From a virus (lineage: Duplodnaviria > Heunggongvirae > Uroviricota > Caudoviricetes): a stretch of DNA of 64,000 nt. Location of the stretch: the IMG/VR virus record IMGVR_UViG_3300029914_000004, one strand, 5' to 3'. Position 1 is the first letter of the stretch, and the number at the start of each line of letters is the position of its first letter. The position numbers and the translations under genes were made by a program. Shown piece by piece: positions 338 through 62,067 of this stretch. A model generated the notes under the pieces. That model had not been told where the DNA came from and did no database searches. It saw nothing but the letters and a program-made list of their open reading frames with translations.

Positions 338-434
338 GGGCAGTTGGGGGAGTGGCTTAACCCAAAAGTTTGCTAAACTTTCGGACCAGAATTAAATACT
401 GGTTCCATTCGTTCAAATCGAATACTGCCCGCCA
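338..434 (+). tRNA. tRNA-Ser(GCU), type II with long variable arm
   Basis: Acceptor GGGCAGT/ACTGCCC followed by discriminator G and CCA; D-loop AGTGGCTTAA; anticodon stem AAAGT/ACTTT with loop TTGCTAA (anticodon GCT); long variable arm; T-arm ATTCG-TTCAAAT-CGAAT. Confidence 0.7.
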
Positions 435-463
435 AGTTTAAATTTATAAAAGGAGAAAAAGAC

Positions 464-634
464 ATGCTCGATTATCGACTGTTACATTGTGAATGTGCCT
501 GCCACTTTTTTCCAACAGTTATCAAACATACTGAACCTTGTTGTGATGCAGTAAAATTATTTAAAAAAGACATTGAGATAAAGACTAAGAAAGAAAAGGT
601 AAATACAAAGAAGAATACACAGATGGATGCGTGA
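464..634 (+). CDS. small Cys-rich hypothetical protein (56 aa)
   Basis: ATG preceded by AGGAGAAAAAGAC RBS; Cys-rich (HCECACH...PCC); shorter than the ORF-track cutoff. Confidence 0.35.
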   Translation: MLDYRLLHCECACHFFPTVIKHTEPCCDAVKLFKKDIEIKTKKEKVNTKKNTQMDA

Positions 635-976
635 GTGGTTTATACGATCAGTTTATAAAAACTAACAACCCATTCCATCTGATACAAATTAAATGGAGGT
701 ATTGGGCATTGGCAAGCCCTTCTGTCTCGAAAACAGACGTACCGAAAGGACTTGGGGATTCGACTTCCTCTGCCTCCGCCACTTGGAGAAATAATGGCTT
801 GGACAAATAGAAAATTTTATAAACGACATTCAAAAACGAATTTTTTAATGCTTTATTTGGAAAAGATTAAAAATGAAGAAAGAAGATTGCATGACATTCT
901 TTGTGAACAACTTGCTTATTTGGAAGACGAAGAATGTATAGAAAATTTTAATGATGATGATTGGATAAGTTGCTAA

Positions 977-1489
977 ATGAAAACTATTTTTTTATTTCTG
1001 TTAATATTATCATGCTCTGTTAGCATAGCTCAATCACCAGATTTTTCTGTCCCTAAAAAACATATTATTCCAATGATTTTTAATTATCCGGGATATAATA
1101 TAACCAATGATAATAAACAAAGAAAAATGTTATTCATTGAACGATCAACATTTTTGCTGGATGAAACCACAACTTATATTGCAATTAATAAAACACCAAA
1201 GATAATAACATTAGCAGATGGTTCCAACCATACTTTTCCATTGCAGGAAGGTAATCCCATAATGTCAATATTTGGTAATAGAAATACTATTGGAATTTTG
1301 GGTTCTGGTATTTTTTGGGATAGTGTTTATAATATTAGCACCAGCGAATTATATAAATATTCTGATCATCATTATAGCAATAAAACTAGAAAAGTTATCC
1401 ATGCTGGAATAATTATTATTGGATGCTATTACACTGAAGAACATATTAGGGCTGGAATTACGAATATTAATAATATTAAAAATTATTAA
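977..1489 (+). CDS. hypothetical secreted protein
   Basis: 170 aa; N-terminal signal-peptide-like MKTIFLFLLILSCSVSIAQS. Confidence 0.45.
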   Translation: MKTIFLFLLILSCSVSIAQSPDFSVPKKHIIPMIFNYPGYNITNDNKQRKMLFIERSTFLLDETTTYIAINKTPKIITLADGSNHTFPLQEGNPIMSIFGNRNTIGILGSGIFWDSVYNISTSELYKYSDHHYSNKTRKVIHAGIIIIGCYYTEEHIRAGITNINNIKNY

Positions 1490-1491
1490 AT

Positions 1492-1586
1492 GGAGAGGTG
1501 GCAGAGAGTCTTATTGCGATAGTCTAGAAAACTATTGGGCTTACTAATAATAAGTCCCGTGGGTTAAAATCCCACTCTCTCCTCCA
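1492..1586 (+). tRNA. type II tRNA (long variable arm); anticodon read as AGA (Ser-like), atypical
   Basis: Acceptor GGAGAGG/TCTCTCC with G-U at pair 7, discriminator T and CCA; D-stem GCAG/TTGC; anticodon stem ATAGT/ACTAT with loop CTAGAAA; roughly 22-nt variable arm; T-arm GTGGG-TTAAAAT-CCCAC. Confidence 0.5.
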
Positions 1587-1592
1587 TTTTAT

Positions 1593-1684
1593 GTGCTGAT
1601 ACGGAAGTGGCTTAACCGGGCGGTCTGCAAAATCGCTATAATCATTAATTTGATTCGTGGGTTCGAATCCCACTCAGCACTCCA
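1593..1684 (+). tRNA. type II tRNA-like; anticodon read as GCA (Cys) with a 20-nt variable arm, atypical
   Basis: Acceptor GTGCTGA/TCAGCAC with discriminator T and CCA; D-arm CGG-AAGTGGCTTAA-CCG; anticodon stem GCGGT/ATCGC with loop CTGCAAA; extra arm AATC...GATT; T-arm GTGGG-TTCGAAT-CCCAC. Confidence 0.45.
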
Positions 1685-9192: not shown

Positions 9193-9813
9193 ATGAAGCA
9201 AGATTTTGAAAAGATCAGAATTGCGATACGACATTGGCAACTTGGTCGTAATTATTTTACTGCTGTTCGTGCAATGAATTTTGCTCAAAGCAAACATGTT
9301 GGATTGCGTAAAGATAAGATCACGCCAGAATTTCAACATCAAGTATCTCAGACAAACTTTGCCAGAACTTTGATCAATTCATATATGTTTCCAGAAGAAA
9401 CTCTAGCAACAATCTGGCTGCACGATGTAGTGGAAGATTGCGGCGTTACTATTTCAGAAATAGAAAAAATGTTTGGGGCGCGTATTGCTTTCAGCGTTGA
9501 ATTAATGACCAATCAAGTTTCTGGAGTAAAGAAACCATTAGATAAATATTATTCTGCGATGATTGCTGATCCTATTGCAAGTTTAGCGAAGGGAATTGAT
9601 CGTATGCACAATCACCAATCAATGAATGGAGTTTTCAGTATTACAAAACAAAAGTCATACATTGAAGAATCTGAAACTTACATTTTTCCTATGCTCAAAG
9701 CTGCTCGTAAGACTTTTCCAGAACAGGAAAGTGCATATCAAAACATTCGTCATATCCTGCAAATTCAAATTGAACTTGTAAGAGCAATGATTGAAAACTC
9801 AGAAAGGGCATAA
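9193..9813 (+). CDS. HD-domain (p)ppGpp hydrolase-like protein (SpoT/Mesh1-type small alarmone hydrolase)
   Basis: TIWLHDVVEDCGVTISEIEKMFGARIAFSVELMT resembles the RelA/SpoT HD block LHDVIEDT...FG..VA.LV. Confidence 0.55.
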   Translation: MKQDFEKIRIAIRHWQLGRNYFTAVRAMNFAQSKHVGLRKDKITPEFQHQVSQTNFARTLINSYMFPEETLATIWLHDVVEDCGVTISEIEKMFGARIAFSVELMTNQVSGVKKPLDKYYSAMIADPIASLAKGIDRMHNHQSMNGVFSITKQKSYIEESETYIFPMLKAARKTFPEQESAYQNIRHILQIQIELVRAMIENSERA

Positions 9814-13682: not shown

Positions 13683-13961
13683 ATGATTGAAAAAGCAGTC
13701 AGTCTGCACAATGATATTGGCAACCACGATAAAGTTTATTACATTCAAATCGTGTCGGCTGAAAATAATAAGTTTACTGTATGTTTTCAATATGGCAGAC
13801 GCGGAAAGCATTTGACATATGGCACAAAAACTGACATCCCAGTATCTCTTTGGGAAGCTGAACGACTTTTTAGTGACAAATTAAATCATGAACTGAAAAA
13901 GGGATATCACGTTATTCCAAATCCTGTCGATCTGCTGACAATTATTGGATTTTCATACTAA
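13683..13961 (+). CDS. WGR-domain protein
   Basis: 92 aa; DKVYYIQIV...FQYGRRGKHLTYGT resembles the WGR core (W-G-R-x-G). Confidence 0.4.
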   Translation: MIEKAVSLHNDIGNHDKVYYIQIVSAENNKFTVCFQYGRRGKHLTYGTKTDIPVSLWEAERLFSDKLNHELKKGYHVIPNPVDLLTIIGFSY

Positions 13962-14043
13962 AATATGTTGAAAATCCAATTAGAACTTTAAAAATTACGT
14001 TACAAAATATTTCCTTAACCAAAATAAAGATGAGGACAACTGA

Positions 14044-14778
14044 ATGAATATTACATGGCATACTGAGCAAAAATCACGACCATATCAAGAGGATAGATTT
14101 TTTGTCCAGAAGCTGACTTCTGGAGAAACCATTCTTGGAGTATTTGATGGTCATGGTGATTCTTGGACTTCTGAGTATGCTGCAAAACATACCCCATATA
14201 TTTTTCGGGCATTATTGAAGAATAATCCTTATTCTTATTATTTAACAATGGAAAAAGTAATTAATAGACTTGATAAAAAAACACAAAATCATTATTGCGG
14301 AAGCACTGCATCATTGGTTTTGATCGACAAAGATCAAAAATTTGCATACGTTGCCATTCTTGGCGATAGCCCTGTGATTATTAAAGATGCAGAAGAAAAT
14401 ATTTGGATTGCTCCAGAGCACAATGTTCGATCAAATAAAGCAGAAGCTGATGCTGCTATAAAAGATGGCAAAGCATTTATTTCTGATGGATATTTATTTG
14501 ATCGAAGCAAAGGTCGTGATAGCACCGGCTTACAAATGTCCAGAGCATTAGGGGACAGAAGTTTAGATAATATCTTAAATCGAACTCCAGAAGTTTTTGA
14601 AATCGAATTAAATAAAAATAGCTGGATTTTATGTGCATCTGATGGCTTAACTGATCCTGGCCATTCTTCATCTAATTTTGATAATATCATTGCAAAAATT
14701 TCAACCGCAACTGCTAGAAGCTTAACTAAAGAAGCCGGAATTTATGACAATGCAACAGCTATTTTAGTAAAACTGTAA
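14044..14778 (+). CDS. PP2C-family (PPM) Ser/Thr protein phosphatase
   Basis: GVFDGHGD (motif 1), ILGDSPVII, CASDGLTD (metal-binding Asp motifs). Confidence 0.7.
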   Translation: MNITWHTEQKSRPYQEDRFFVQKLTSGETILGVFDGHGDSWTSEYAAKHTPYIFRALLKNNPYSYYLTMEKVINRLDKKTQNHYCGSTASLVLIDKDQKFAYVAILGDSPVIIKDAEENIWIAPEHNVRSNKAEADAAIKDGKAFISDGYLFDRSKGRDSTGLQMSRALGDRSLDNILNRTPEVFEIELNKNSWILCASDGLTDPGHSSSNFDNIIAKISTATARSLTKEAGIYDNATAILVKL

Positions 14779-15016
14779 AATTTTTACTTTACGATAAATA
14801 AGTATAGATTCAATTTATTTCATAAGCGAGAATTAGCAAGAATGTTACTTTCAATTTTGAAACATTTACCAATATCTATTTTTATAAGTATATCACTATT
14901 ATGCCAGAATACTTTGATTTTCAGTATATTGGTATTTTTATTAATTTGTTTATGTAGTATGTGGTTTTTCTTAGCGTATAAGTTTATTAAATTTCCTTTA
15001 TTCAAAGCGACTATGT

Positions 15017-16294
15017 ATGAAAAATACTAATCTAGATATTAAATGTATTTTCTGTGGCAAAACTAGGGCCGAAAGTTCCAAAATTCTCGTGAGTGGAGAA
15101 TTTTCAATTTGTGATAAATGTGTGTTACTTTTCAATGGTCTTTTAGAAAATAGTAAACCTTCAGAAAAAAAAGCTAAAGAGAAAGAAATTAAGCAAGAAT
15201 CTGAATTAATATCTGAGGAAATTATTCCTCAATTAAATTCCATTGAAATTAAAAAATTTCTTGATAAGAATGTTATTGGGCAAGAAGAAGCAAAAATTGC
15301 ATTGAGCGTTAGTATAGTAAATCACTATAAAAGAATGCTATATGAAACAACTAATTATACACAATTAGACAAAAGTAATTTAATTATCACTGGACCGAGC
15401 GGAAGTGGAAAATCTCTTCTCATTAAAACAATTTCTAAATTTTTAAATGTTCCCTTCGTATCAATAGATGCTACTACATTGACCGAAGCTGGTTATATTG
15501 GAGAAAATGTAGACACTATCATTTCTCGGCTTCTTGCTAATGCAGATGGTGATATTGAAGCTGCTCAACAAGGAATTGTTTTTATTGATGAAATAGATAA
15601 AATTGCCACTGGAAAAACTAGAAGTAGCACAAGCGACAAACATGTATCTGGAGTTCAAGCTGCATTATTAAAAATGGTAGAAGGATCTATTGTAAGAATT
15701 CCATCGCCTTCAATTAAAAAATCATTTATTCCCCAATTAGTCGAAGTTGATACAACAAATATATTGTTCATTTGCGGCGGGGCATTTGAGGGATTAAATG
15801 AAATAGTTATTAATAGATTGAAAAAGAAATCAGGAATGGGGTTTACTGATGCTCCTATAAATAATAAAACTTTAGAAACAGAATATTCTACAGAAGATTT
15901 TATTGAATATGGAATAATTCCTGAATTTATTGGAAGATTTCCATTACATACATATACTACTGCATTGAGTACTGAAGAATTAATTAAAGTTTTAACAGAT
16001 TTAGACAATAATATGCTTTTTCAATATAAATTTTATTTTGAAATTGATGATATTGATATAGAATTTACTGATGAATTTATTGCCAAATTAGCCGCAAAAG
16101 CAAAAATGAATAAAACTGGAGTTCGTGGCCTTAAAGGATTGTGTGATTCAATAATGTCAGATCATTTATTTTTACTTCCTGAATATAAAAAACGTGGAAT
16201 TTTTAAATTAATATTTGACGAAAGTTGTATAGATAAAAAATCTATACCCAAATTTGAATTCACTACATTCAAAGAAAAAGTAAAAACTTCTTGA
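15017..16294 (+). CDS. clpX: ClpX-like AAA+ unfoldase
   Basis: N-terminal C4 zinc-binding domain CIFCGK...ICDKCV; Walker A ITGPSGSGKSLL; Walker B VFIDEIDKI; ClpX-like region GYIGE.V; about 425 aa. Confidence 0.8.
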   Translation: MKNTNLDIKCIFCGKTRAESSKILVSGEFSICDKCVLLFNGLLENSKPSEKKAKEKEIKQESELISEEIIPQLNSIEIKKFLDKNVIGQEEAKIALSVSIVNHYKRMLYETTNYTQLDKSNLIITGPSGSGKSLLIKTISKFLNVPFVSIDATTLTEAGYIGENVDTIISRLLANADGDIEAAQQGIVFIDEIDKIATGKTRSSTSDKHVSGVQAALLKMVEGSIVRIPSPSIKKSFIPQLVEVDTTNILFICGGAFEGLNEIVINRLKKKSGMGFTDAPINNKTLETEYSTEDFIEYGIIPEFIGRFPLHTYTTALSTEELIKVLTDLDNNMLFQYKFYFEIDDIDIEFTDEFIAKLAAKAKMNKTGVRGLKGLCDSIMSDHLFLLPEYKKRGIFKLIFDESCIDKKSIPKFEFTTFKEKVKTS

Positions 16295-16354
16295 TAGAAA
16301 TATTTCAGATACGCTAATACCATAAACAATTAAAATAAACTGAAAGAGGATATA

Positions 16355-16657
16355 ATGACAGTAAATACTTTGAAAAAGGTAAAAATTAATATTGATGTAA
16401 AAGAACCAACTCTATATCAGGTAGTTTATTACAATGACGAAATCACTCCTGCTGTTTTTGTTGCAGAAACATTAATCCAAATTTTCAATTATGAAATTGA
16501 AGATGCTGTTGCATTAACTACAGTTATTAATGATTCTGGGTCAGGTATTGCTGTGAGCGGAATATCAAAAGAATTAGCCACTCATCTGAAGGACCTAGTG
16601 TTGGTATCTGCGCAAGTTGCAAAATACCCACTCAAAGTAGAAGTAAAAGCGAAATAA
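16355..16657 (+). CDS. clpS: ClpS-like Clp protease adaptor
   Basis: 100 aa; YQVVYYNDEITPAVFVAETLIQIFNYEIEDAVALTTVINDSGSGIAVSG fits the ClpS core pattern Y.V.L.NDD.TPMEFV..VL...F......A..LML.VH..G.G..G. Confidence 0.7.
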   Translation: MTVNTLKKVKINIDVKEPTLYQVVYYNDEITPAVFVAETLIQIFNYEIEDAVALTTVINDSGSGIAVSGISKELATHLKDLVLVSAQVAKYPLKVEVKAK

Positions 16658-16690
16658 AAATGGAGAGTTAAACTCTCCATTTTTATTTCT
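16653..16690. terminator. bidirectional rho-independent terminator
   Basis: GGAGAGTT-TA-AACTCTCC hairpin flanked by an A-run and a T-run, between convergent genes. Confidence 0.7.
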
Positions 16691-17003
16691 TTTTGGATGT
16701 AGTTTTTGCTTTTTTTGTTTTACTAATTACAGTATTGTTTGCAATAGCATTAATCGCGTCTTTTTCAATCTCTGCAACTGTTTCAACCACAATTTTTTTT
16801 ACTTTTGTCTTTGCAGCCGTGACCACTTCTTTCGCTGCTGGGGTCGCAATATCAATTAATTCCTGCTCTGCAACCAAAAAAACTTTTGTAGCAGAATTTT
16901 TTAAATCTGATTTTTCAGTTTCTTCTGATTCCTCGGACCTAATAAACTTAACAATTGCTCCTGCTACTACCAATAAAACCAAAATTATGATAACTGTATA
17001 CAT
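16683..17003 (-). CDS. small secreted or membrane-anchored protein
   Basis: 106 aa; N-terminal hydrophobic helix; A/K/T-rich. Confidence 0.45.
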   Translation of the reverse strand: MYTVIIILVLLVVAGAIVKFIRSEESEETEKSDLKNSATKVFLVAEQELIDIATPAAKEVVTAAKTKVKKIVVETVAEIEKDAINAIANNTVISKTKKAKTTSKKK

Positions 17004-17116
17004 TTTGCACCACCTTATAAAATAATTACAAATCTATTTATCTTTTTACTTGACATCATGCATCAAACTTGTTACTATTATATATATAGAAACATATATT
17101 AAAGGAGAATTAAATT

Positions 17117-17365
17117 ATGGCTTTTACAAATATTCAAGGAACACAGACTGCGTTTTTGCACAACTATCTTAGGGGTACAAATCGCACACTAACAGAGAAG
17201 CAAGCACTTAGTTTGTTCGGGATCAAAAATCTTCGTGCAAGATTGAGTGAACTTCGTCTTCTTGGTCTTCGAGTTCGCTCTGAAAAGACTCTTGATGGTC
17301 GTGCAAAGTATAGCGTGAGCCGTCGAGACGTTTACGGCAGTGAATTCAGCTTGGTTTCTAAGTAA
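17117..17365 (+). CDS. small basic protein, putative DNA-binding
   Basis: 82 aa, GC-richer than the surroundings, R/K-rich; RBS AAGGAG. Confidence 0.4.
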   Translation: MAFTNIQGTQTAFLHNYLRGTNRTLTEKQALSLFGIKNLRARLSELRLLGLRVRSEKTLDGRAKYSVSRRDVYGSEFSLVSK

Positions 17366-17479: not shown

Positions 17480-18181
17480 ATGGATGAAAAAGCACAACTA
17501 GCTGCTGTTCAACAAAATGGTTATGCAATTCAATACATCGACAAGCCAAGCGAAGCTGTGCAACTGGCTGCTGTTCAACAAAATGGTTGTGCAATTGAAT
17601 ACATCAGCAAGCCAAGCGAAGCTGTGCAACTGGCTGCTGTTCAACAAAATGGTTGTGCAATTGAATACATCAGCAAGCCAAGCAAAGCTGTGCAACTAGC
17701 TGCTGTTCAACAAGATGGTTGGGCAATTGAATACATCAGAAATCCAAGCGAAGCTGTGCAATTGGCTGCTGTTCAACAAGATGGTTGGGCAATTGAATAC
17801 ATCGACAATCCAAGCGAAGCTGTGCAAATGGCTGCTATTCAACAAAATGGTTGGGCAATTGAATACATCGACAATCCAAGCGAAGCTGTGCAAATGGCTG
17901 CTATTCAACAAAATGGTCGTGCAATTGAATACATCAGCAAGCCAAGCGAAGCTGTGCAAATGGCTGCTGTTCAACAAGATGGTTGTGCAATTAAATACAT
18001 CGACAAACCAAGCGAAGCTGTGCAAATGGCTGCTGTTCAACAAAATAGTGCGGTAATTCAATACATCGACAAGCCAAGCGAAGCTGTGCAACTGGCTGCT
18101 GTTCAAGAAAATAGTGCGGTAATTCAATTCATAAAAAATCCAACAATTAATGTCAAATTAGTGGCTAAATTGCTATCTTAA
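17480..18181 (+). CDS. DUF4116-like 20-aa tandem-repeat protein (about 11 repeats)
   Basis: Eleven near-identical 60-nt (20-aa) units PSEAVQLAAVQQNGxAIEYI(S/D)K; C-terminus INVKLVAKLLS. Confidence 0.7.
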   Translation: MDEKAQLAAVQQNGYAIQYIDKPSEAVQLAAVQQNGCAIEYISKPSEAVQLAAVQQNGCAIEYISKPSKAVQLAAVQQDGWAIEYIRNPSEAVQLAAVQQDGWAIEYIDNPSEAVQMAAIQQNGWAIEYIDNPSEAVQMAAIQQNGRAIEYISKPSEAVQMAAVQQDGCAIKYIDKPSEAVQMAAVQQNSAVIQYIDKPSEAVQLAAVQENSAVIQFIKNPTINVKLVAKLLS

Positions 18182-21592: not shown

Positions 21593-22693
21593 ATGGCTTT
21601 GTGGCGAACTTTTGCTTGTAAAATTCAATTGCTTCCACATCCAAACGCAGATAGAATGGAAATTGCTCGTTGCAATTTCAATCAACTTGTGGTTGCTAAA
21701 GGAAATTATCAAGACGGTGATGTTATTGTCTTCGCACCAGAACGAGCAATTTTGCCTGATTCTTTGAAAGGCGAATATGTAAATTCTGAAACTGGAATCA
21801 GTTATCTTACTGGATCAGAGAAAAATAGAGTCAAAGCTATCAAACTGAGAGGAGAACCATCAGACGGAATTTCCCTTCCTATTGAATGGGTATTGGAGCA
21901 AGTTCCTGAATGGAATTCTGTCAAAGATATTCCTTTGGATATTGACATTTCAGAAAAACTTGGTATTTCAAAGTATGAACCTCCAATTCCTTATAATATG
22001 AGCGGAATTGTAAAATCTGTCGATACTTTAAATTTTGCACCGAAAGTCGCTCATCACGATGTTGAACAATTTCGTTTGTTCGCTGATGAATTTGATAAAA
22101 ATGAAGCTGTAATTTGCAGCGAAAAGTTGCACGGAACGCAAATCAATGTCTTTTTCTCTAAAACTGGAGAAATTGGAGTGTCTAGCAAAGGATTCAATTC
22201 CAGAGATTTGATCATTGAACAGGATGCAAAGAATCTCTACTGGCAAGCACTGGAAAATTCTGGTCTAATTAATTTTGTTAAATGCGAAATTCTTGAGTCA
22301 AATGCTCCAGAACTATACAAATCAGATGTTCAATTGGTTGGAGAAGTAATTCCTTGCCAAAAGAATTTTACATATGGTCAAACCAAACCAATTCTGAAGC
22401 TATTTCGTTTTATTGTAAATGGCAAGGAATATTCAGTTCTTGATCTTAACAGAATTTATGGAAAACAGTTCTTGAAAGATCATTGGGTGCCAATTCTTTA
22501 TCACGGAAAATTTGATCCTGAAATATTTGCAAAACTATCTTCTGGAAATGAAACTGTCTCTGGAAAAGGTTTGCACATCAAAGAAGGCATTGTTATTGCT
22601 CCAGAAATTCCGCGAGTAGCGCGAAGAGGATTTCTCCTTCTTTTAAAATGGCTAAATAAGAATTATAAACCAACAGATGAGGATTTTTCTTAA
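21593..22693 (+). CDS. RNA ligase with an N-terminal OB-like domain plus a nucleotidyltransferase domain (Rnl5/DraRnl-NgrRnl-like)
   Basis: Motif I KxHG (SEKLHGTQ) around residue 180, preceded by a roughly 110-aa domain, as in the Deinococcus and Naegleria ligases. Confidence 0.5.
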   Translation: MALWRTFACKIQLLPHPNADRMEIARCNFNQLVVAKGNYQDGDVIVFAPERAILPDSLKGEYVNSETGISYLTGSEKNRVKAIKLRGEPSDGISLPIEWVLEQVPEWNSVKDIPLDIDISEKLGISKYEPPIPYNMSGIVKSVDTLNFAPKVAHHDVEQFRLFADEFDKNEAVICSEKLHGTQINVFFSKTGEIGVSSKGFNSRDLIIEQDAKNLYWQALENSGLINFVKCEILESNAPELYKSDVQLVGEVIPCQKNFTYGQTKPILKLFRFIVNGKEYSVLDLNRIYGKQFLKDHWVPILYHGKFDPEIFAKLSSGNETVSGKGLHIKEGIVIAPEIPRVARRGFLLLLKWLNKNYKPTDEDFS

Positions 22694-23055
22694 TGTTTAA
22701 TATTTGTGAAGACGATTTGACCAATTCAAATTTATTAACTTTAAATTATACTAGAAGTGGAAAAATTGCATGTGCAATTCGTCAACTGTTTAACTGGTAT
22801 TGCCATATTCAAAATAAGGAATATAATCTTCCTTATAATGATGGGTATATCAACTATATACATGCTGATAAAAATTGGATTAAAGTTGATGGACTTATTA
22901 GTGGAAATGAATATCGATGGAATATTCCGATCCCATATAGAAATGAAATGAATATCCCTACTAAATGGTTATTTCAGGAAAACTGGAAAGAATTAATTGA
23001 ACAACAAATTAAACGAGATAAAAATGAATATCTCATAAAAAAATTAAGTGAATAA
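22693..23055 (+). CDS. EKLSE-family small protein
   Basis: C-terminus ENWKELIEQQIKRDKNEYLIKKLSE. Confidence 0.45.
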   Translation: MFNICEDDLTNSNLLTLNYTRSGKIACAIRQLFNWYCHIQNKEYNLPYNDGYINYIHADKNWIKVDGLISGNEYRWNIPIPYRNEMNIPTKWLFQENWKELIEQQIKRDKNEYLIKKLSE

Positions 23056-23279
23056 TGGAGAGTTTTATGATTTTATTTTTAGTAATTTTATATCTAATTT
23101 CTACAATTGAAGCCACGTATTTTTTCAGTAAATCTTGGTTATTCTATAACGATTTATATTTGGGAAATTTGATTTTTTGTTTTATACTGGGACTTTTACC
23201 TTGTGCTTTCGTTCCAGCGTTTATATTATATTTAATAACATATTCCAAGTTGCCAGCCCTTTTAATAAAGAAGAGATAA
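23055..23279 (+). CDS. small membrane protein
   Basis: 74 aa with two hydrophobic helices. Confidence 0.4.
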   Translation: MESFMILFLVILYLISTIEATYFFSKSWLFYNDLYLGNLIFCFILGLLPCAFVPAFILYLITYSKLPALLIKKR

Positions 23280-23602
23280 TGATTCCAGACGAATTAACGA
23301 GAGCATTACAATTGGTGGGGAAAGATCATCAATTAATTAATAACGAAGTTTCTATAATTTATAAAAAATTTCAAGAACTCAAATTGAAAATTTTGGGATA
23401 TTCATGGAACAATAAATGTGTGTCTATTTTTGATGTAATTGAATTAGATTATAATAATAAATTATTTTTCATTAATAAAAAACGTGGATGTTATTTATCA
23501 TTTCCAATTCGTTGGCTCAGCGATCCAAATTGGGAAAAAGAAGCAATAGAAGGGATCAAAATTGAGAGAGATTATGCTCTAATTGACAAACTACAATCAT
23601 AA
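23279..23602 (+). CDS. EKLSE-family small protein (variant C-terminus IDKLQS)
   Basis: ATG after AAGAGATA; NWEKEAIEGIKIERDYALIDKLQS; in the frame of ORF 23177..23602. Confidence 0.4.
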   Translation: MIPDELTRALQLVGKDHQLINNEVSIIYKKFQELKLKILGYSWNNKCVSIFDVIELDYNNKLFFINKKRGCYLSFPIRWLSDPNWEKEAIEGIKIERDYALIDKLQS

Positions 23603-23665
23603 GAAAACAAATGATTTATTTTGACTTTTAGGTTTATATTTGCTGTTCTAGATTAGAGGATCAAA

Positions 23666-24763
23666 ATGATTGTTTTAAATAAACTGCTGAATGTCGAGAC
23701 TTTGGAGCAATTAATTGCTGATGGATATATTTCTCGAAAATTTCACTCCAAATTTCCTTTGGCAATTTTGAACTATTCTCATAAAGCCAACTTTGATCCA
23801 AACTTGATATGGGGCAATGAGTTAAATTTCTGCCGAGGATTGATTTACAATACTGAAACTTTAGAAATTGTTAGTCGTCCATTTTCCAAATTCTGGAACA
23901 TTAATGATACTCGCCATCCTGAAACTATGGAAGAGAATCTTCCCAACGATATTCCTCTAATCACATCAAAGATGGATGGGAGCATGGGAGTATTTTATCA
24001 CTGGGATGGTGTAAATTATATTGCAACTCGTGGAAGTTTTGAGTCTGACCAATCAAATTGGGCCAATGAATGGCTTCATAAAAATTATCCTAATTTGATT
24101 CTTCCAAAAAATTATACTCTGCTATCAGAAATCCTTTTCAAATCTAATAGGATAGTCGTAGAATATGATTTTGAAGGACTTGTAATTTTGGGAGCAGTTC
24201 ATAAAGAAACTGGCCAGGAATTATCACGTCAAAATCTTGTAGATTATTGCGATATTACTAATCTAAACATCGTTCAAGACCACACCAAGTCTTTATCTGA
24301 GTGTGTTTCTGAAGACTTACCCAATTTTGAGGGATATGTCTTAACTTATTCAAATGGGTTAAAAGTTAAAATCAAAGAATTGACTTATTGCACCCTCCAT
24401 AAGATTATTACAGGTCTCAATCCTAAAGCAATTTGGGAATTGAAGCGTGATGGAAAAAATGAAACTATTGATAGTTGGTTGAATGATAAAATAATGCCGA
24501 TTGAATTCAAGAATTGGCTAAACAAGTGGGATGATCAATTATCCAATGATTTCTACAAAATATTGATGACGGCTGAATCTATTTTTAATAAGCAACCAAA
24601 AACTAATTCTCGTAAGGAAATTGCAACATATTTCTTACAAGGAGAAAACAAAGAGTATTCATCTATTTTATTCGGATTATTGGATGGCAAAGATGTTTCT
24701 CAAACAATTTGGAGAATGATTGAGCCAAAATTCAATGACGTATTTAGAGAAGATGGAGAGTAA
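23666..24763 (+). CDS. RNA ligase 1-like (T4 RnlA family)
   Basis: Motif I K-x-D-G (ITSKMDGSMGVF) around residue 100; 365 aa, similar in size to T4 Rnl1. Confidence 0.55.
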   Translation: MIVLNKLLNVETLEQLIADGYISRKFHSKFPLAILNYSHKANFDPNLIWGNELNFCRGLIYNTETLEIVSRPFSKFWNINDTRHPETMEENLPNDIPLITSKMDGSMGVFYHWDGVNYIATRGSFESDQSNWANEWLHKNYPNLILPKNYTLLSEILFKSNRIVVEYDFEGLVILGAVHKETGQELSRQNLVDYCDITNLNIVQDHTKSLSECVSEDLPNFEGYVLTYSNGLKVKIKELTYCTLHKIITGLNPKAIWELKRDGKNETIDSWLNDKIMPIEFKNWLNKWDDQLSNDFYKILMTAESIFNKQPKTNSRKEIATYFLQGENKEYSSILFGLLDGKDVSQTIWRMIEPKFNDVFREDGE

Positions 24764-32963: not shown

Positions 32964-32994
32964 CATATTCAAAACAAAGCACTTATTTTCTTAT

Positions 32995-33023
32995 TGACAA
33001 ATCACCTAAAGTTTAGTATACTT
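32995..33023 (+). promoter_or_regulatory. family promoter with a conventional leader (TTGACA-N17-TATACT)
   Basis: Followed by a 22-nt leader with a GGAG RBS. Confidence 0.55.
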
Positions 33024-33041
33024 ATTTTAGTGGAGAAAACT

Positions 33042-34367
33042 ATGACCAAGATGAATCAAAATGCGCTGGCAGTAATGGAGACTCTTGAAAATGCAGGGTA
33101 CGATGCCTTTTTATGCGGGGGCGCGGTCAGAGATTTGCTTCTTGGCTTGACTCCACACGATTGGGATGTAACTACTTCTGCCCCTGCTGAAGTCGTGGAT
33201 TCTCTCTTTCCCAATACAAAGATGGTGGGAGAAAATTTTGGCGTTTCTCTTGTTGAATACAATGGAGAAACATTTGAAGTTGCGCGATTCCGTCGTGATG
33301 GAGATTATAGCGATAATCGCCGCCCAGATTTTGTGGACTTCACTTTGTCTGCTGAAGAAGATGTTGCTAGAAGAGATTTTACCATGAATGCTTTGCTCAT
33401 GGATCGAAACGGAAATGTTTACGATTTTGTTGGTGGACAGACTGATTTGCAGAATGGTTTGCTCCGGGCTGTTGGAAATCCTGAAACTCGTTTCACTGAA
33501 GATGCATTGCGTTTACTTCGAGCTGTCCGTTTCGCAGCGCGATTTAATCTTCGATTTGATCGGGAAACTCATGAAGCAATAGAAAAGAGGGCTTTTTCTG
33601 TTGAAACTCTTCCGCCTGATCGTGTTAGCGGAGAACTTGTCAAGATGCTGACTGGTGGCAATGTCAATGTTGCTTTCAAGCTTATGGACAACACTGGATT
33701 GCTTCAGCATGTTTTGCCTGAAGTCAATGCAATGCGTGGTGTGGATCAAAATAGCAAATTTCATCCAGAAGGAGATGTTTTTCAGCATACTCTGCTCATG
33801 CTGTCTAAGCTTCCTGCGAATTGCAGCGTCACTCTTGCCTTGTCTGTCCTTCTTCATGATGTGGCAAAACCAACAACTGCTGTTCGTAACGTAAAGACTG
33901 GTGAAAATCAGTTTTTTGGCCACGAAACAGTCGGTGCTGAAATGGCTGCAAAGATGCTTCGCAATCTTCGATTTTCAAATGAAGTTGTAGATGCTGTTAG
34001 CAGCCTTGTTTCTCAGCACATGAAGTTTTTCAACGTAACGAAGATGAATGATTCCAAGTTGAAGAGATTCGTTCGTCAGGAAAATTTCAGCGAATTGCTT
34101 GAACTGAATCGTCTTGATAGTCTTTGCAGTAATGGTGATCTCACTGATTTCAATTTTGCTGTTGATTTTCTTGCAAGTGTCACTGAAGAGTCTTTGAATC
34201 CTGTTCGTCTGCTTACTGGAAACGATTTGCAGGCAATGGGGTTGAAGCCTGGCCCGATGTTTAAGACTTTGCTTACTGCACTCGAAAATGCGCAGCTTGA
34301 CGGGCGTGTAACAACTCGTGACGAAGCTGTATTTTTCGTTGAATCTTTGACTGGCGGAGACAGGTAA
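33042..34367 (+). CDS. cca: CCA-adding enzyme (tRNA nucleotidyltransferase, head domain plus HD domain)
   Basis: Pol-beta nucleotidyltransferase motif LCGGAVRDLLLG..DWDV; RRDFTMNAL; C-terminal HD domain LLHDVAKP; about 45% GC. Confidence 0.8.
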   Translation: MTKMNQNALAVMETLENAGYDAFLCGGAVRDLLLGLTPHDWDVTTSAPAEVVDSLFPNTKMVGENFGVSLVEYNGETFEVARFRRDGDYSDNRRPDFVDFTLSAEEDVARRDFTMNALLMDRNGNVYDFVGGQTDLQNGLLRAVGNPETRFTEDALRLLRAVRFAARFNLRFDRETHEAIEKRAFSVETLPPDRVSGELVKMLTGGNVNVAFKLMDNTGLLQHVLPEVNAMRGVDQNSKFHPEGDVFQHTLLMLSKLPANCSVTLALSVLLHDVAKPTTAVRNVKTGENQFFGHETVGAEMAAKMLRNLRFSNEVVDAVSSLVSQHMKFFNVTKMNDSKLKRFVRQENFSELLELNRLDSLCSNGDLTDFNFAVDFLASVTEESLNPVRLLTGNDLQAMGLKPGPMFKTLLTALENAQLDGRVTTRDEAVFFVESLTGGDR

Positions 34368-37310: not shown

Positions 37311-37329
37311 ATACAAGTGTTAAATAACG

Positions 37330-37700
37330 CTCGTGAAAGGACAGTATAAAATCAACGGACAACACACCGGTTCAACTCCGGTCAGGTCCACCAAATTTAT
37401 GATTCAATGTTTTATTTGGGCCTGTCATGGTATCGATTGACGTGTGGTTGGACTACTGACGAGCCGACTGGTGTGGCCATCGTAAATGGACACATAAACA
37501 ATAATTGCTACCTCTGGTATCAATGGCAGTGCAAAGATTTTCACGTATTCTGTGAATCTCCGCAACACTGAGCTAGTAAACGCCTAATAAGCTTTACTCC
37601 GAGGAGTTGTTCCGTCCTTGTAAAAGAAACGGAACTATAAAATTTCCTTTAACAACTCAGTAGATCACTGCATATAGGACAATTTTATTTTGCATCTAGA
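37330..37700 (+). ncRNA. ssrA: candidate circularly permuted (two-piece) tmRNA-like RNA
   Basis: T-arm plus 3' acceptor plus CCA (ACCGGTTCAACTCCGGT-CAGGTCC-A-CCA; GGTTCAACTCC is identical to the E. coli tmRNA T-arm) with no 5' acceptor upstream; perfectly complementary 5' acceptor GGGCCTG 14 nt downstream, followed by ATCGATTGACG (compare tmRNA GGATTCGACG); 420-nt ORF-free, GC-richer, hairpin-rich region; possible tag frame ending AAC GCC TAA TAA. Confidence 0.4.
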
Positions 37701-55929: not shown

Positions 55930-56211
55930 TCATCCTATATTAATGGGACTATCTTCATTATTTTCAATATTTTTATTGCGTTTTTTAAAATGTTCTGTTA
56001 ATTTTTTATCTAATCTAAGTTCTTGTTCATATTTATACTGCTCTAAGATATCCCTGGCTTGCATAGATAAATTCATATTAGTTGAATATAATATTCTTTG
56101 CAATTTTACGATTTTTTGTTCCAATTCTTCATCGTTTAATTTTTCAAATTCTTTATTAATCATTTTTACCTCCCTATTTTCTATCAGTTGACCCAAAGCC
56201 GCCTGAACCAC
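55930..56211 (-). CDS. hypothetical coiled-coil protein
   Basis: 93-aa ORF. Confidence 0.4.
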   Translation of the reverse strand: MVQAALGQLIENREVKMINKEFEKLNDEELEQKIVKLQRILYSTNMNLSMQARDILEQYKYEQELRLDKKLTEHFKKRNKNIENNEDSPINIG

Positions 56212-57469
56212 GACTACTTTCTTCTAAAGATTCAACTTCTATAACTTCGCCACAATGAATTGCAGGAATTGGAATTAATTGAGCAAGTTTGCAAGGTAAC
56301 TGAATATCTGGCATATCTTTATTAACCTTTCTCAAAGCCACAATTATATTTCCTACATAAGAACGATCAATTATACCAAGTTCATTAGCAAAAGTATAGC
56401 CAGTTTTTGACATGGAACTTCTTGGTGCCATCATTAGCCAATATCCATATGATATTTGTGCTTTTATACCAGTATCATAATATTCAACATCACCCAGTTG
56501 TTTAATTTTTGAAAGCAATGTTAAATCATATCCAGAATCGCTTGGATTGGCTTTTGATGGCAAAATTGCATCTTGACAAGTTTTGACACATTTAAATTGA
56601 ATATTATTACTATGAGTTCCTGAACCGCTCAATCCAGGGACCCATAATTTCCATTGAAAATAAAGTTCATATTTTCTTTCTAAATAATAGTTTGCATTAT
56701 CATACATTTTCCCCAAAACATCTAATGCATTGTTTCCATCCCATTCCAATATTGATCTTTTTGCAGCATTCCTTCCAGGAATATTTATAAATGAAAATAT
56801 ATCTTCCCTAAATTTTGGAGAGCTTGAAGCTATATTAATTGTGGGATAAGAAAATCCATGAGATTGTTTATTCCATGGTCTATTTACAGAACCATCCCCA
56901 TCAAACACTCCTCGTATAAATGCCCAACCCAAAAAATTATTATAATAAATACTTTTGGGAAATTGAACTGTAAATGATTTTGCTCCAGGAGGAATTTCTA
57001 AATGTTTGCAAATATCTTTAACAATTTTTCCAGAGCAAAATCTAAATGTTTTCATAGGACGTGATTTATGTAATTTGGCAGCAAAATTTATTCCTAATAT
57101 TTTATTAAAAGAATTAAATATTTTAGTATCTTTATTATGAATTTCAATAGCTATTTCTCCATTTTTATTAATAGCTCCATAACTTGCAATCCATCCCAAT
57201 AGATACGCTTTCCCTTCTGAATCAATTTCATTAAAAAAATTATCATCTAATAAATATTTGCAATTTGGATTGTTTCTTCCAGAATGTTTTAATTGCCTTG
57301 AACAATTCAAGCATATATCTTTTCCATTATTATTCTCTCGGCAAATCATCCCAGTTCTATAATCTGATTTATAAATATTTTTACATTTTTCGCTTAATTT
57401 AATATCGCACTCTACTATTATTTTTCTATGAGATTTTTCAGAAAATCCAGTAACATCATTTAAAAACAT
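56174..57469 (-). CDS. dut: dUTPase fused to an N-terminal Zn-finger/LAGLIDADG-like module
   Basis: C-terminal 150 aa carry all five dUTPase motifs (SDSGYDL, PRSSMS, GIIDRSYVGN, KLAQLIP, RGSGGFGSTD); N-terminal 280 aa carry CxxC pairs and two LAGLIDADG-like motifs (YLLGWIASYG, FLGWAFIRGVFDGDGS). Confidence 0.65.
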   Translation of the reverse strand: MFLNDVTGFSEKSHRKIIVECDIKLSEKCKNIYKSDYRTGMICRENNNGKDICLNCSRQLKHSGRNNPNCKYLLDDNFFNEIDSEGKAYLLGWIASYGAINKNGEIAIEIHNKDTKIFNSFNKILGINFAAKLHKSRPMKTFRFCSGKIVKDICKHLEIPPGAKSFTVQFPKSIYYNNFLGWAFIRGVFDGDGSVNRPWNKQSHGFSYPTINIASSSPKFREDIFSFINIPGRNAAKRSILEWDGNNALDVLGKMYDNANYYLERKYELYFQWKLWVPGLSGSGTHSNNIQFKCVKTCQDAILPSKANPSDSGYDLTLLSKIKQLGDVEYYDTGIKAQISYGYWLMMAPRSSMSKTGYTFANELGIIDRSYVGNIIVALRKVNKDMPDIQLPCKLAQLIPIPAIHCGEVIEVESLEESSRGSGGFGSTDRK

Positions 57470-61851: not shown

Positions 61852-62067
61852 TTAGAAACGATAAACTATTCTTGCCTTCTCAAGAGAATATGGAGACAAT
61901 TCTAACTGAACATTATCTCCTGGTTCAATTCTAATATTATTTTTTCGTAATCGACCACCAAGATAAGCAAGGACAATCTGCCCTCCTGGAATTTCAACTT
62001 CCCAAATTGTATTTGGTAATGCTTTTACTACTTTTCCTTTAATACTAACTTGATCTGCTTGTGCCAT
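61852..62067 (-). CDS. infA: translation initiation factor IF-1
   Basis: 71 aa; near-collinear with E. coli InfA (GKVVKALPNTIWEVEIPGGQIVLAYLGGRLRKNNIRIEPGDNVQLELSPYSLEKARIVYR compared with [60 protein letters not shown]). Confidence 0.85.
   Translation of the reverse strand: MAQADQVSIKGKVVKALPNTIWEVEIPGGQIVLAYLGGRLRKNNIRIEPGDNVQLELSPYSLEKARIVYRF

Follow-up and report, generated by a model that had tools for sequence, protein, structure and literature searches.

A phage clpX-clpS locus with a divergent ClpS, a stripped form of a recurrent viral Clp module

Background

Here we analyse two adjacent genes, clpX and clpS, at positions 15,017 to 16,690 of the IMG/VR record IMGVR_UViG_3300029914_000004, a 64,000-nucleotide stretch of Caudoviricetes DNA that we call the window. 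A clpX with a clpS downstream of it is not a new arrangement: it is annotated in the jumbo phage vB_PaeM_PA5oct (Arenbergviridae), which is the closest cultured relative that we identified, and it is widespread in IMG/VR. In PA5oct, the gene for ClpX (gp255, at 169742) is followed by those for bS21 (gp256), two hypothetical proteins, a heat-shock protein (gp259) and ClpS (gp260, at 172602), while FtsH (gp266) lies 2.3 kb and ClpP (180397-181005) 7.5 kb past ClpS. Another example is the Agrobacterium jumbo phage Atu_ph07, which, like the window phage, encodes both ClpX (gp2) and ClpS (gp708) and has a complete protease system with ClpA (gp292), ClpB (gp492) and ClpP (gp676); its ClpS, ClpX, ClpP and ClpA have been remarked on in print (PMC6102473). 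Iyer et al., who surveyed 224 jumbo phages, proposed that phage ClpS brings targets to the host ClpAP, and suggested that phage ClpX has a role as a translocase or in assembly (PMC7824862). The omics paper on PA5oct nowhere mentions "Clp", and a 2026 review of jumbo phages contains none of the terms Clp, ClpX, ClpS, proteostasis or chaperone.

ClpS is an adaptor of ClpA and ClpC; a link between it and ClpX is not known (PMC9663308; bioRxiv 10.1101/2024.06.12.598358). It docks on the N-domain of ClpA and threads its N-terminal extension into the pore; it promotes the degradation of N-degron substrates, inhibits that of ssrA substrates and lowers the ATPase rate of ClpAP (PMC9663308). In the ClpS of Mycolicibacterium, the amino terminus of the bound peptide is stabilised by a histidine that corresponds to His66, and the docking on ClpA by two acidic residues (the Glu79/Glu82 pair) (bioRxiv 10.1101/2024.06.12.598358).

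The window carries a stripped form of a viral module with the order clpX - (bS21) - ibpA-like small heat-shock protein (sHSP) - clpS - (clpP), of which a two-gene remnant is left. Its ClpX has the motifs of an unfoldase, and its ClpS belongs to a clade in which residues of the substrate pocket and of the docking surface are replaced.

The ClpX and ClpS of the window

The two genes and the parts of ClpX discussed below are as follows.

15017-16294, + strand: clpX, an open reading frame for a full-length AAA+ unfoldase of 425 amino acids
15041-15148, + strand: N-terminal C4 zinc-binding domain of ClpX, residues 9-44 (PF06689, 29.9 bits, cut-off 27)
15392-15415, + strand: Walker A motif GPSGSGKS, residues 126-133, from the alignment to E. 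coli ClpX
15491-15502, + strand: pore-1 loop GYIG, residues 159-162 (GYVG in E. coli), from the same alignment
15836-15844, + strand: MGF, residues 274-276, in the place of the IGF loop by which E. coli ClpX docks on ClpP, from the same alignment
16355-16657, + strand: clpS, a divergent gene for 100 amino acids with the ClpS fold (Pfam, AlphaFold2 model, Foldseek and residue tables)

The ClpX protein passes two NCBIfam equivalog models, NF003745 (408.7 bits, cut-off 359) and TIGR00382 (393.2 bits, cut-off 370.75), and matches both zf-C4_ClpX and AAA_2 in Pfam. Its top match among solved structures is E. coli ClpX (8e91, residues 8-412, E = 1.9e-92). We read its motifs from an alignment that also contained E. 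coli ClpX and 119 relatives from the databases. The zinc-finger cysteines Cys10, Cys13, Cys32 and Cys35 can be seen in the translation as CxxC...CxxC, and the Walker B motif (FIDEID), the arginine finger (EFIGRFP) and sensor 2 (GVRGL) are present as well. The domain architecture is the same as in E. coli ClpX (8e91 and other structures), and the zinc-binding domain, Walker A and B, the pore-1 tyrosine, the docking loop and the equivalents of Arg307 and Arg370 are all there. The two proteins differ in the pore-1 loop (GYIG vs GYVG), in the docking tripeptide (MGF vs IGF) and in the RKH loop, which is not conserved in the window protein and reads KKS at the aligned position. The RKH loop is a trait of proteobacterial ClpX and not a universal one. 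Unlike E. coli clpX, the window gene is encoded by a phage and has no clpP next to it.

Throughout the phage ClpX clade to which we compared it (proteins P0009-P0041) the docking tripeptide is [I/L/M]GF, except that F comes first in P0038, and the loop is kept across the clade, including lineages that have no clpP nearby. Since every motor motif and the [I/L/M]GF docking loop are kept, the ClpX of the window could use a ClpP. Conservation of the loop leads us to infer that the phage protein has retained its docking on a ClpP.

The ClpS of the window matches Pfam PF02617 along the whole profile (positions 1-80 of 80) with 54.2 bits (cut-off 23), and misses the cut-offs of all NCBIfam ClpS equivalogs, with a best score of 39.6 bits against 149. 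We built an AlphaFold2 model from an alignment of six sequences (mean pLDDT 73). The model has a beta-alpha-alpha-beta-alpha-beta core that begins near Pro18, preceded by a predicted disordered N-terminal extension of ~17 residues (pLDDT below 50 for residues 1-15). In a Foldseek search of the PDB with this model, all of the top 30 matches were ClpS structures; compared with ClpS from C. crescentus and E. coli, the target-normalised TM-score is 0.94-0.96 at a root-mean-square deviation of ~1 A. Both the fold and the disordered extension are thus shared with the solved E. coli and C. crescentus proteins (1mbx, 3o2b, 3dnj and 3g19), to which the sequence is 27% identical.

The first-pass annotation of this DNA, made from its letters, had called a phage-encoded, full-length ClpX with a zinc-binding domain and an AAA+ module, and a ClpS next to it. 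Profile searches (PF06689, AAA_2, NF003745, TIGR00382 and PF02617), the pore and docking loops of ClpX and fold recognition for ClpS all bear these identifications out. The further description of the ClpS as an N-degron adaptor is a different matter, as the residues of the binding site show.

In canonical ClpS, the N-terminal alpha-amino group of the substrate is bound by Asn34, Asp35, Thr38 and His66, and Met40 is a gatekeeper that bars beta-branched residues. The window protein retains the first three as Asn27, Asp28 and Thr31, and has Asn59 at the position of His66 and Ala33 at that of Met40. On the docking surface, Glu79 is kept as Glu73; Thr76 stands in the place of Glu82 and Leu78 in that of Lys84, a contact in the E. 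coli ClpS-ClpA N-domain structure described in 2002. The docking surface also varies in actinobacterial ClpS. In addition to these replacements, the position of Met62 in E. coli ClpS is occupied by Thr; Asn34, Asp35, Thr38 and Glu79 have equivalents in the window protein. Because His66, Met40, Glu82 and Lys84 are replaced and the NCBIfam equivalog cut-offs are missed, the sequence does not establish the N-degron adaptor label for this protein.

The neighbourhood differs as well: clpS adjoins clpX in the window and clpA in E. coli and C. crescentus.

A recurrent viral Clp module

We surveyed IMG/VR, taking the best 80 loci seeded with the ClpX of the window and another 80 loci (L095-L174) seeded with ClpS. 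Around the ClpX seeds, ClpS was found in 73 of the 80 loci, mostly 1-4 kb downstream and farther away in a few, and ClpP in 20. Around the ClpS seeds we found ClpX in 57, ClpP in 40 and ClpA in one of the 80. The tightest linkage in viral contigs is that between the sHSP and clpS: an IbpA-like sHSP lies ~100 nt upstream of clpS in 72 of the 80 ClpS-seeded loci, and PA5oct has the same pair (MK797984, 172055-172904). In summary, viral contigs repeatedly combine clpX, an ibpA-like sHSP and clpS, often with clpP as well, in a module that is known by annotation.

The only ClpA among the ClpS-seeded loci is found on L107 (IMGVR_UViG_3300029922_000161, 38.8 kb), where ClpX, the sHSP, ClpS, ClpP and a ClpA-like gene lie within 12 kb. 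The sample from which it comes, 3300029922, also gave an exact copy of the window locus.

Among the INPHARED phages there was no megablast match to the locus and no tblastn match with the window ClpS; phage ClpS genes were found there only with a canonical viral ClpS as the query.

Compared with PA5oct, the order is the same, with clpX upstream of clpS on one strand. The ClpX proteins are 41% identical and share the MGF loop, and the ClpS proteins are 33% identical. At the aligned positions of His66 and Met40, PA5oct ClpS has His and Met, and the window protein Asn and Ala. Unlike PA5oct, the window is without bS21, the two hypothetical genes, the sHSP, FtsH and a nearby ClpP; upstream of clpX, the clade of the window has instead genes for a WGR-domain protein and a PP2C phosphatase and a small hydrophobic open reading frame. 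The ClpX of Atu_ph07 is 38.5% identical to that of the window, in which none of ClpA, ClpB and ClpP of the Atu_ph07 system was found.

Proposed mode of action

The first-pass annotation had treated the products of the two genes as a pair, an unfoldase with its N-degron adaptor, that would re-target the host ClpP. The genes are indeed linked and the ClpS fold is there. However, the two products are probably not a cognate unfoldase-adaptor pair, because ClpS is known to serve ClpA and ClpC and not ClpX. As to the re-targeting of the host ClpP, which may or may not take place, the relative PA5oct encodes a ClpP of its own, and the DNA examined here covers ~80 kb of a genome of at least 148 kb.

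The reading that we prefer, to which as a whole we give a probability of roughly 55%, is that the phage ClpX works on a ClpP, that the phage ClpS works on ClpA or ClpC of the host, and that the two act in parallel. Hexamers of the phage ClpX would dock on a ClpP tetradecamer, either that of the host or a phage copy encoded outside the visible ~80 kb, and this docking would add unfolding and degradation capacity under the control of the phage during infection. ClpS, by means of its core and its N-terminal extension, would engage an unfoldase of the ClpA/ClpC type in the host and alter the degradation targets of that protease. It would not serve ClpX; instead, both would act side by side on two unfoldases that compete for ClpP. 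Because His66, Met40, Glu82 and Lys84 are replaced in this lineage, the substrate range of its ClpS, its docking surface or both would differ from those of canonical ClpS. The altered pocket and docking residues may leave room for a changed specificity, for pure inhibition or for a new partner.

Several points weigh against this parallel action. The window ClpS is without His66 and without the ClpA contacts Glu82 and Lys84, which weakens a canonical role as a ClpA adaptor. Viral clpS is linked to clpX and the sHSP and almost never to clpA, which could hint at another partner. The presence of a ClpA or ClpC in the host is an assumption. We found no experimental study of phage-encoded Clp components in the literature. 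Finally, a clpP could still exist elsewhere in the genome, which has at least 148 kb; it would then lie beyond the ~80 kb that we searched, from about -24 to +55 kb around clpX.

If the module is seen as a whole, its recurrence points to a common strategy, namely seizing Clp proteolysis during the long infections of jumbo phages. The locus of the window opens no new class of system and is largely ordinary apart from its ClpS copy. Nevertheless, a stripped form whose ClpS has lost a residue considered central to the binding of N-degrons would be a handy natural variant for work on the function of viral ClpS.

An atypical ClpS clade

We compared 118 distinct viral ClpS proteins; note that the counts obtained from them are not phylogenetically independent. 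His66 is kept in 107 of these proteins, and in all 107 position 82 is acidic (Glu or Asp) and position 84 basic (Lys or Arg). It is missing in the remaining 11, of which six make up the clade of the window. Throughout this clade the residue at position 66 is Asn, Ser or Asp instead of His, and that at position 40 mostly Ala or Ser instead of Met, whereas Asn34, Asp35 and Thr38 are invariant. All six have Leu for Lys84 together with Thr, Ser or Asn for Glu82. In every clade member seen, clpS lies at most ~0.7 kb downstream of a phage clpX. Where 8 kb or more of sequence follows clpS, a clpP was found in 30 of 58 loci that have a His-type ClpS and in none of seven that have a non-His ClpS.

We searched 185,579 species-representative genomes for signature peptides of the clade and found two weak partial matches only; the search rests on short peptides, so that this absence of cellular relatives is not absolute.

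One may ask whether such a protein still recognises N-degrons at all. It is conceivable, though on balance unlikely, that the ClpS of this lineage has lost this ability and is a decoy or an inhibitor of the host ClpA or ClpC, for example by way of its N-terminal extension acting as a pseudo-substrate, and that it would protect proteins of the phage, or products tagged by tmRNA, against degradation by the host. The replacements at His66 and Met40 and the missed NCBIfam cut-offs agree with this, and so does the effect that even canonical ClpS has on ClpAP, whose degradation of ssrA substrates it inhibits and whose ATPase it slows (PMC9663308). Yet the three invariant residues suggest that the pocket is still under selection, and Asn, Ser or Asp at the position of His66 could still form a hydrogen bond with the alpha-amino group. 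Moreover, changes at both ClpA contacts, Glu82 and Lys84, are not expected in a protein that has to inhibit ClpA.

A further suggestion from the sequences, which we offer as speculative and rather doubtful, is that the ClpS of the window belongs to a virus-restricted subfamily with four linked changes, in which both the ligand and the partner have changed, so that it might supply a new class of substrates to the phage ClpX or be dedicated to acting against ClpA or ClpC. The conserved small membrane open reading frame that abuts or overlaps the start of clpX in five of seven clade members would then be a possible third component.

Search for clpP and other partners

The absence of clpP from the window, which had been remarked in the first-pass annotation, was confirmed by two kinds of search: tblastn with the ClpP of E. 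coli and B. subtilis gave a best E of 3.3, and a profile HMM made from 44 viral ClpP sequences a best E of 2. No ClpP family member was found on contigs that add ~9 kb on the left side of the window and 7.5 kb on its right side, and none of the members of the clade has a clpP within 10 kb. Within the window there was also no match to the ClpA/ClpC N-domain, no sHSP (best E = 0.54 with a profile HMM and nothing with tblastn), no bS21 and no FtsH.

These results bear on the question of whether the phage ClpX works with a ClpP. It might instead be mainly a remodelling chaperone that acts without ClpP, with ClpS functionally unrelated to it; such a ClpX would take apart complexes formed in replication, transposition or assembly, or join the sHSP on aggregates. 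The lack of clpP in the ~80 kb around the gene and near it across the clade is in line with this, as are the presence of an aggregate-binding sHSP in the module of related phages and the translocase or assembly roles proposed by Iyer et al. (PMC7824862). Nonetheless, we consider it improbable: the [I/L/M]GF docking loop is kept clade-wide, which is hard to explain without docking on ClpP, and about half of the His-type viral loci (the 30 of 58 above) do have a clpP.

Locus layout and gene block

Further features of the locus are the following.

13683-13961: gene for a WGR-domain protein, part of a conserved block specific to the clade
14044-14778: gene for a PP2C phosphatase, part of the same block
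14842-15030, + strand: small hydrophobic open reading frame of 62 amino acids that overlaps the start of clpX by 14 nt
16295-16354, + strand: spacer of 60 nt between clpX and clpS, with the ribosome-binding site AAGAGG at 16344-16349
16651-16689, both strands: bidirectional intrinsic terminator (18-bp stem, T-runs on either strand)
16683-17003, - strand: convergent gene for a protein with a hydrophobic N-terminal segment, part of the block
17117-17365: gene for an HTH_39 protein, part of the block

The block at 13683-17365 has the order WGR - PP2C - (small open reading frame) - clpX - (sHSP) - clpS - convergent membrane protein - HTH_39, which is identical in loci L009, L012, L014 and L037. 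In the nearest relatives of the window, ClpX is 55-70% and ClpS 57-80% identical. For the clade orthologues with DNA sequence the proteins are 57-68% identical, and synonymous sites are expected to be saturated. The sHSP has been lost in the window and in L014/L100, L037/L098 and L096, and in these clpX therefore directly adjoins clpS.

This direct adjacency, together with the absence of ClpA from 79 of the 80 viral ClpS neighbourhoods and the joint change of Glu82 and Lys84 in exactly the clade of the window, may be taken to mean that the ClpS of the lineage has been rewired to deliver substrates to the phage ClpX, so that the two would be a true pair after all. We regard this as very unlikely. 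No interaction between ClpS and ClpX is known, and ClpX is without an N-domain of the ClpA type; co-regulation of two factors that are both aimed at the host would explain the linkage equally well, and most viral ClpS proteins retain canonical residues at positions 82 and 84 although they, too, are encoded beside clpX.

As for expression, the 60-nt gap between the two genes contains no hairpin or terminator. The hairpin at 16651-16689 overlaps the stop codon of clpS, is the predicted end of the clpX-clpS transcript and also serves the convergent gene. This layout is consistent with co-transcription, and with the terminator that the first reading of the locus had assigned to both genes.

The operon may begin with the small open reading frame. 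Orthologues of 52-65 amino acids, kept in position, occur in L012, L009, L014 and L037, with Pro10, Cys21, Trp41 and Ala45-x-Lys47 conserved; it is absent in L096 and L097, and is missing from the metagenome gene calls. We also considered the motif SATAAATA as a promoter, as it is conserved 5' of the small open reading frame in the relatives, and rejected it: with 16 occurrences in the window vs 15.8 expected, it shows no enrichment.

Phage origin and genome context

The window contains PHROGs for a T4-type clamp loader, RNA ligase and DNA polymerase as well as tRNAs and a tmRNA; in particular, there are two RNA ligases, a CCA-adding enzyme and a DNA polymerase fragment. Its best cultured matches are Pseudomonas jumbo phages of the PA5oct group, with a clamp loader that is 54% identical. 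Exact copies of both Clp proteins occur on several metagenome contigs from JGI, ENA and Logan, the longest of which has 148.6 kb, and related contigs are present in IMG/VR. Judged by its gene content, the window is DNA of an uncultured jumbo phage related to PA5oct, in agreement with its earlier description as phage-encoded. That the locus is instead cellular, with the clpX and clpS of a bacterium side by side, can practically be discounted: although ClpX passes the bacterial equivalog models and an exact-pattern search of IMG/VR did not return the contig, the window has these T4-type replication genes, tRNAs and tmRNA and matches PA5oct-group phages best, bacteria pair clpS with clpA and clpP with clpX, and the signature peptides of the ClpS clade are absent from the species-representative genomes, within the limits of a pattern search.

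The first-pass annotation had also listed accompanying genes for translation and proteostasis, namely a tmRNA-like RNA, IF-1, a PP2C phosphatase and a hydrolase of the SpoT type. All of these can be found in the window, the last one as a weak match. The tmRNA is a permuted, two-piece one at 37329-37590 (+), which scores 73-75 bits with Rfam RF04321 and encodes the tag ATSGINGSAKIFTYSVNLRNTELVNA, ending in -VNA; the tag ending that ClpX usually recognises is -LAA or -VAA. The IF-1-type gene with an S1 fold lies at ~61852-62067 (-) and is based on precomputed matches to PF01176 on identical contigs. The weak match is to HD_4 (hydrolases of the SpoT/RelA type) at 9193-9813 (+).

Four unusually long tRNA genes of 87-97 nt, three for tRNA-Ser and one for tRNA-Cys, are clustered at 338-1684 (+); only two of the four reach the Rfam gathering score for tRNA. 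A set of genes for RNA repair and maturation at 21593-24763 and 32994-34367 (+) comprises an RNA ligase with a PHA02142 OB domain, a T4 Rnl1-type ligase and the CCA-adding enzyme, which has an HD domain. The relatives of the window also have a PNKP gene that adjoins an HNH endonuclease. At 56174-57469 (-), an open reading frame for a dUTPase (431 amino acids) has an insertion similar to LAGLIDADG homing endonucleases, which may be an intein. At 17480-18181 (+), a protein of 233 amino acids consists of tandem DUF4116 repeats of ~24 amino acids each (Pfam, 111 bits).

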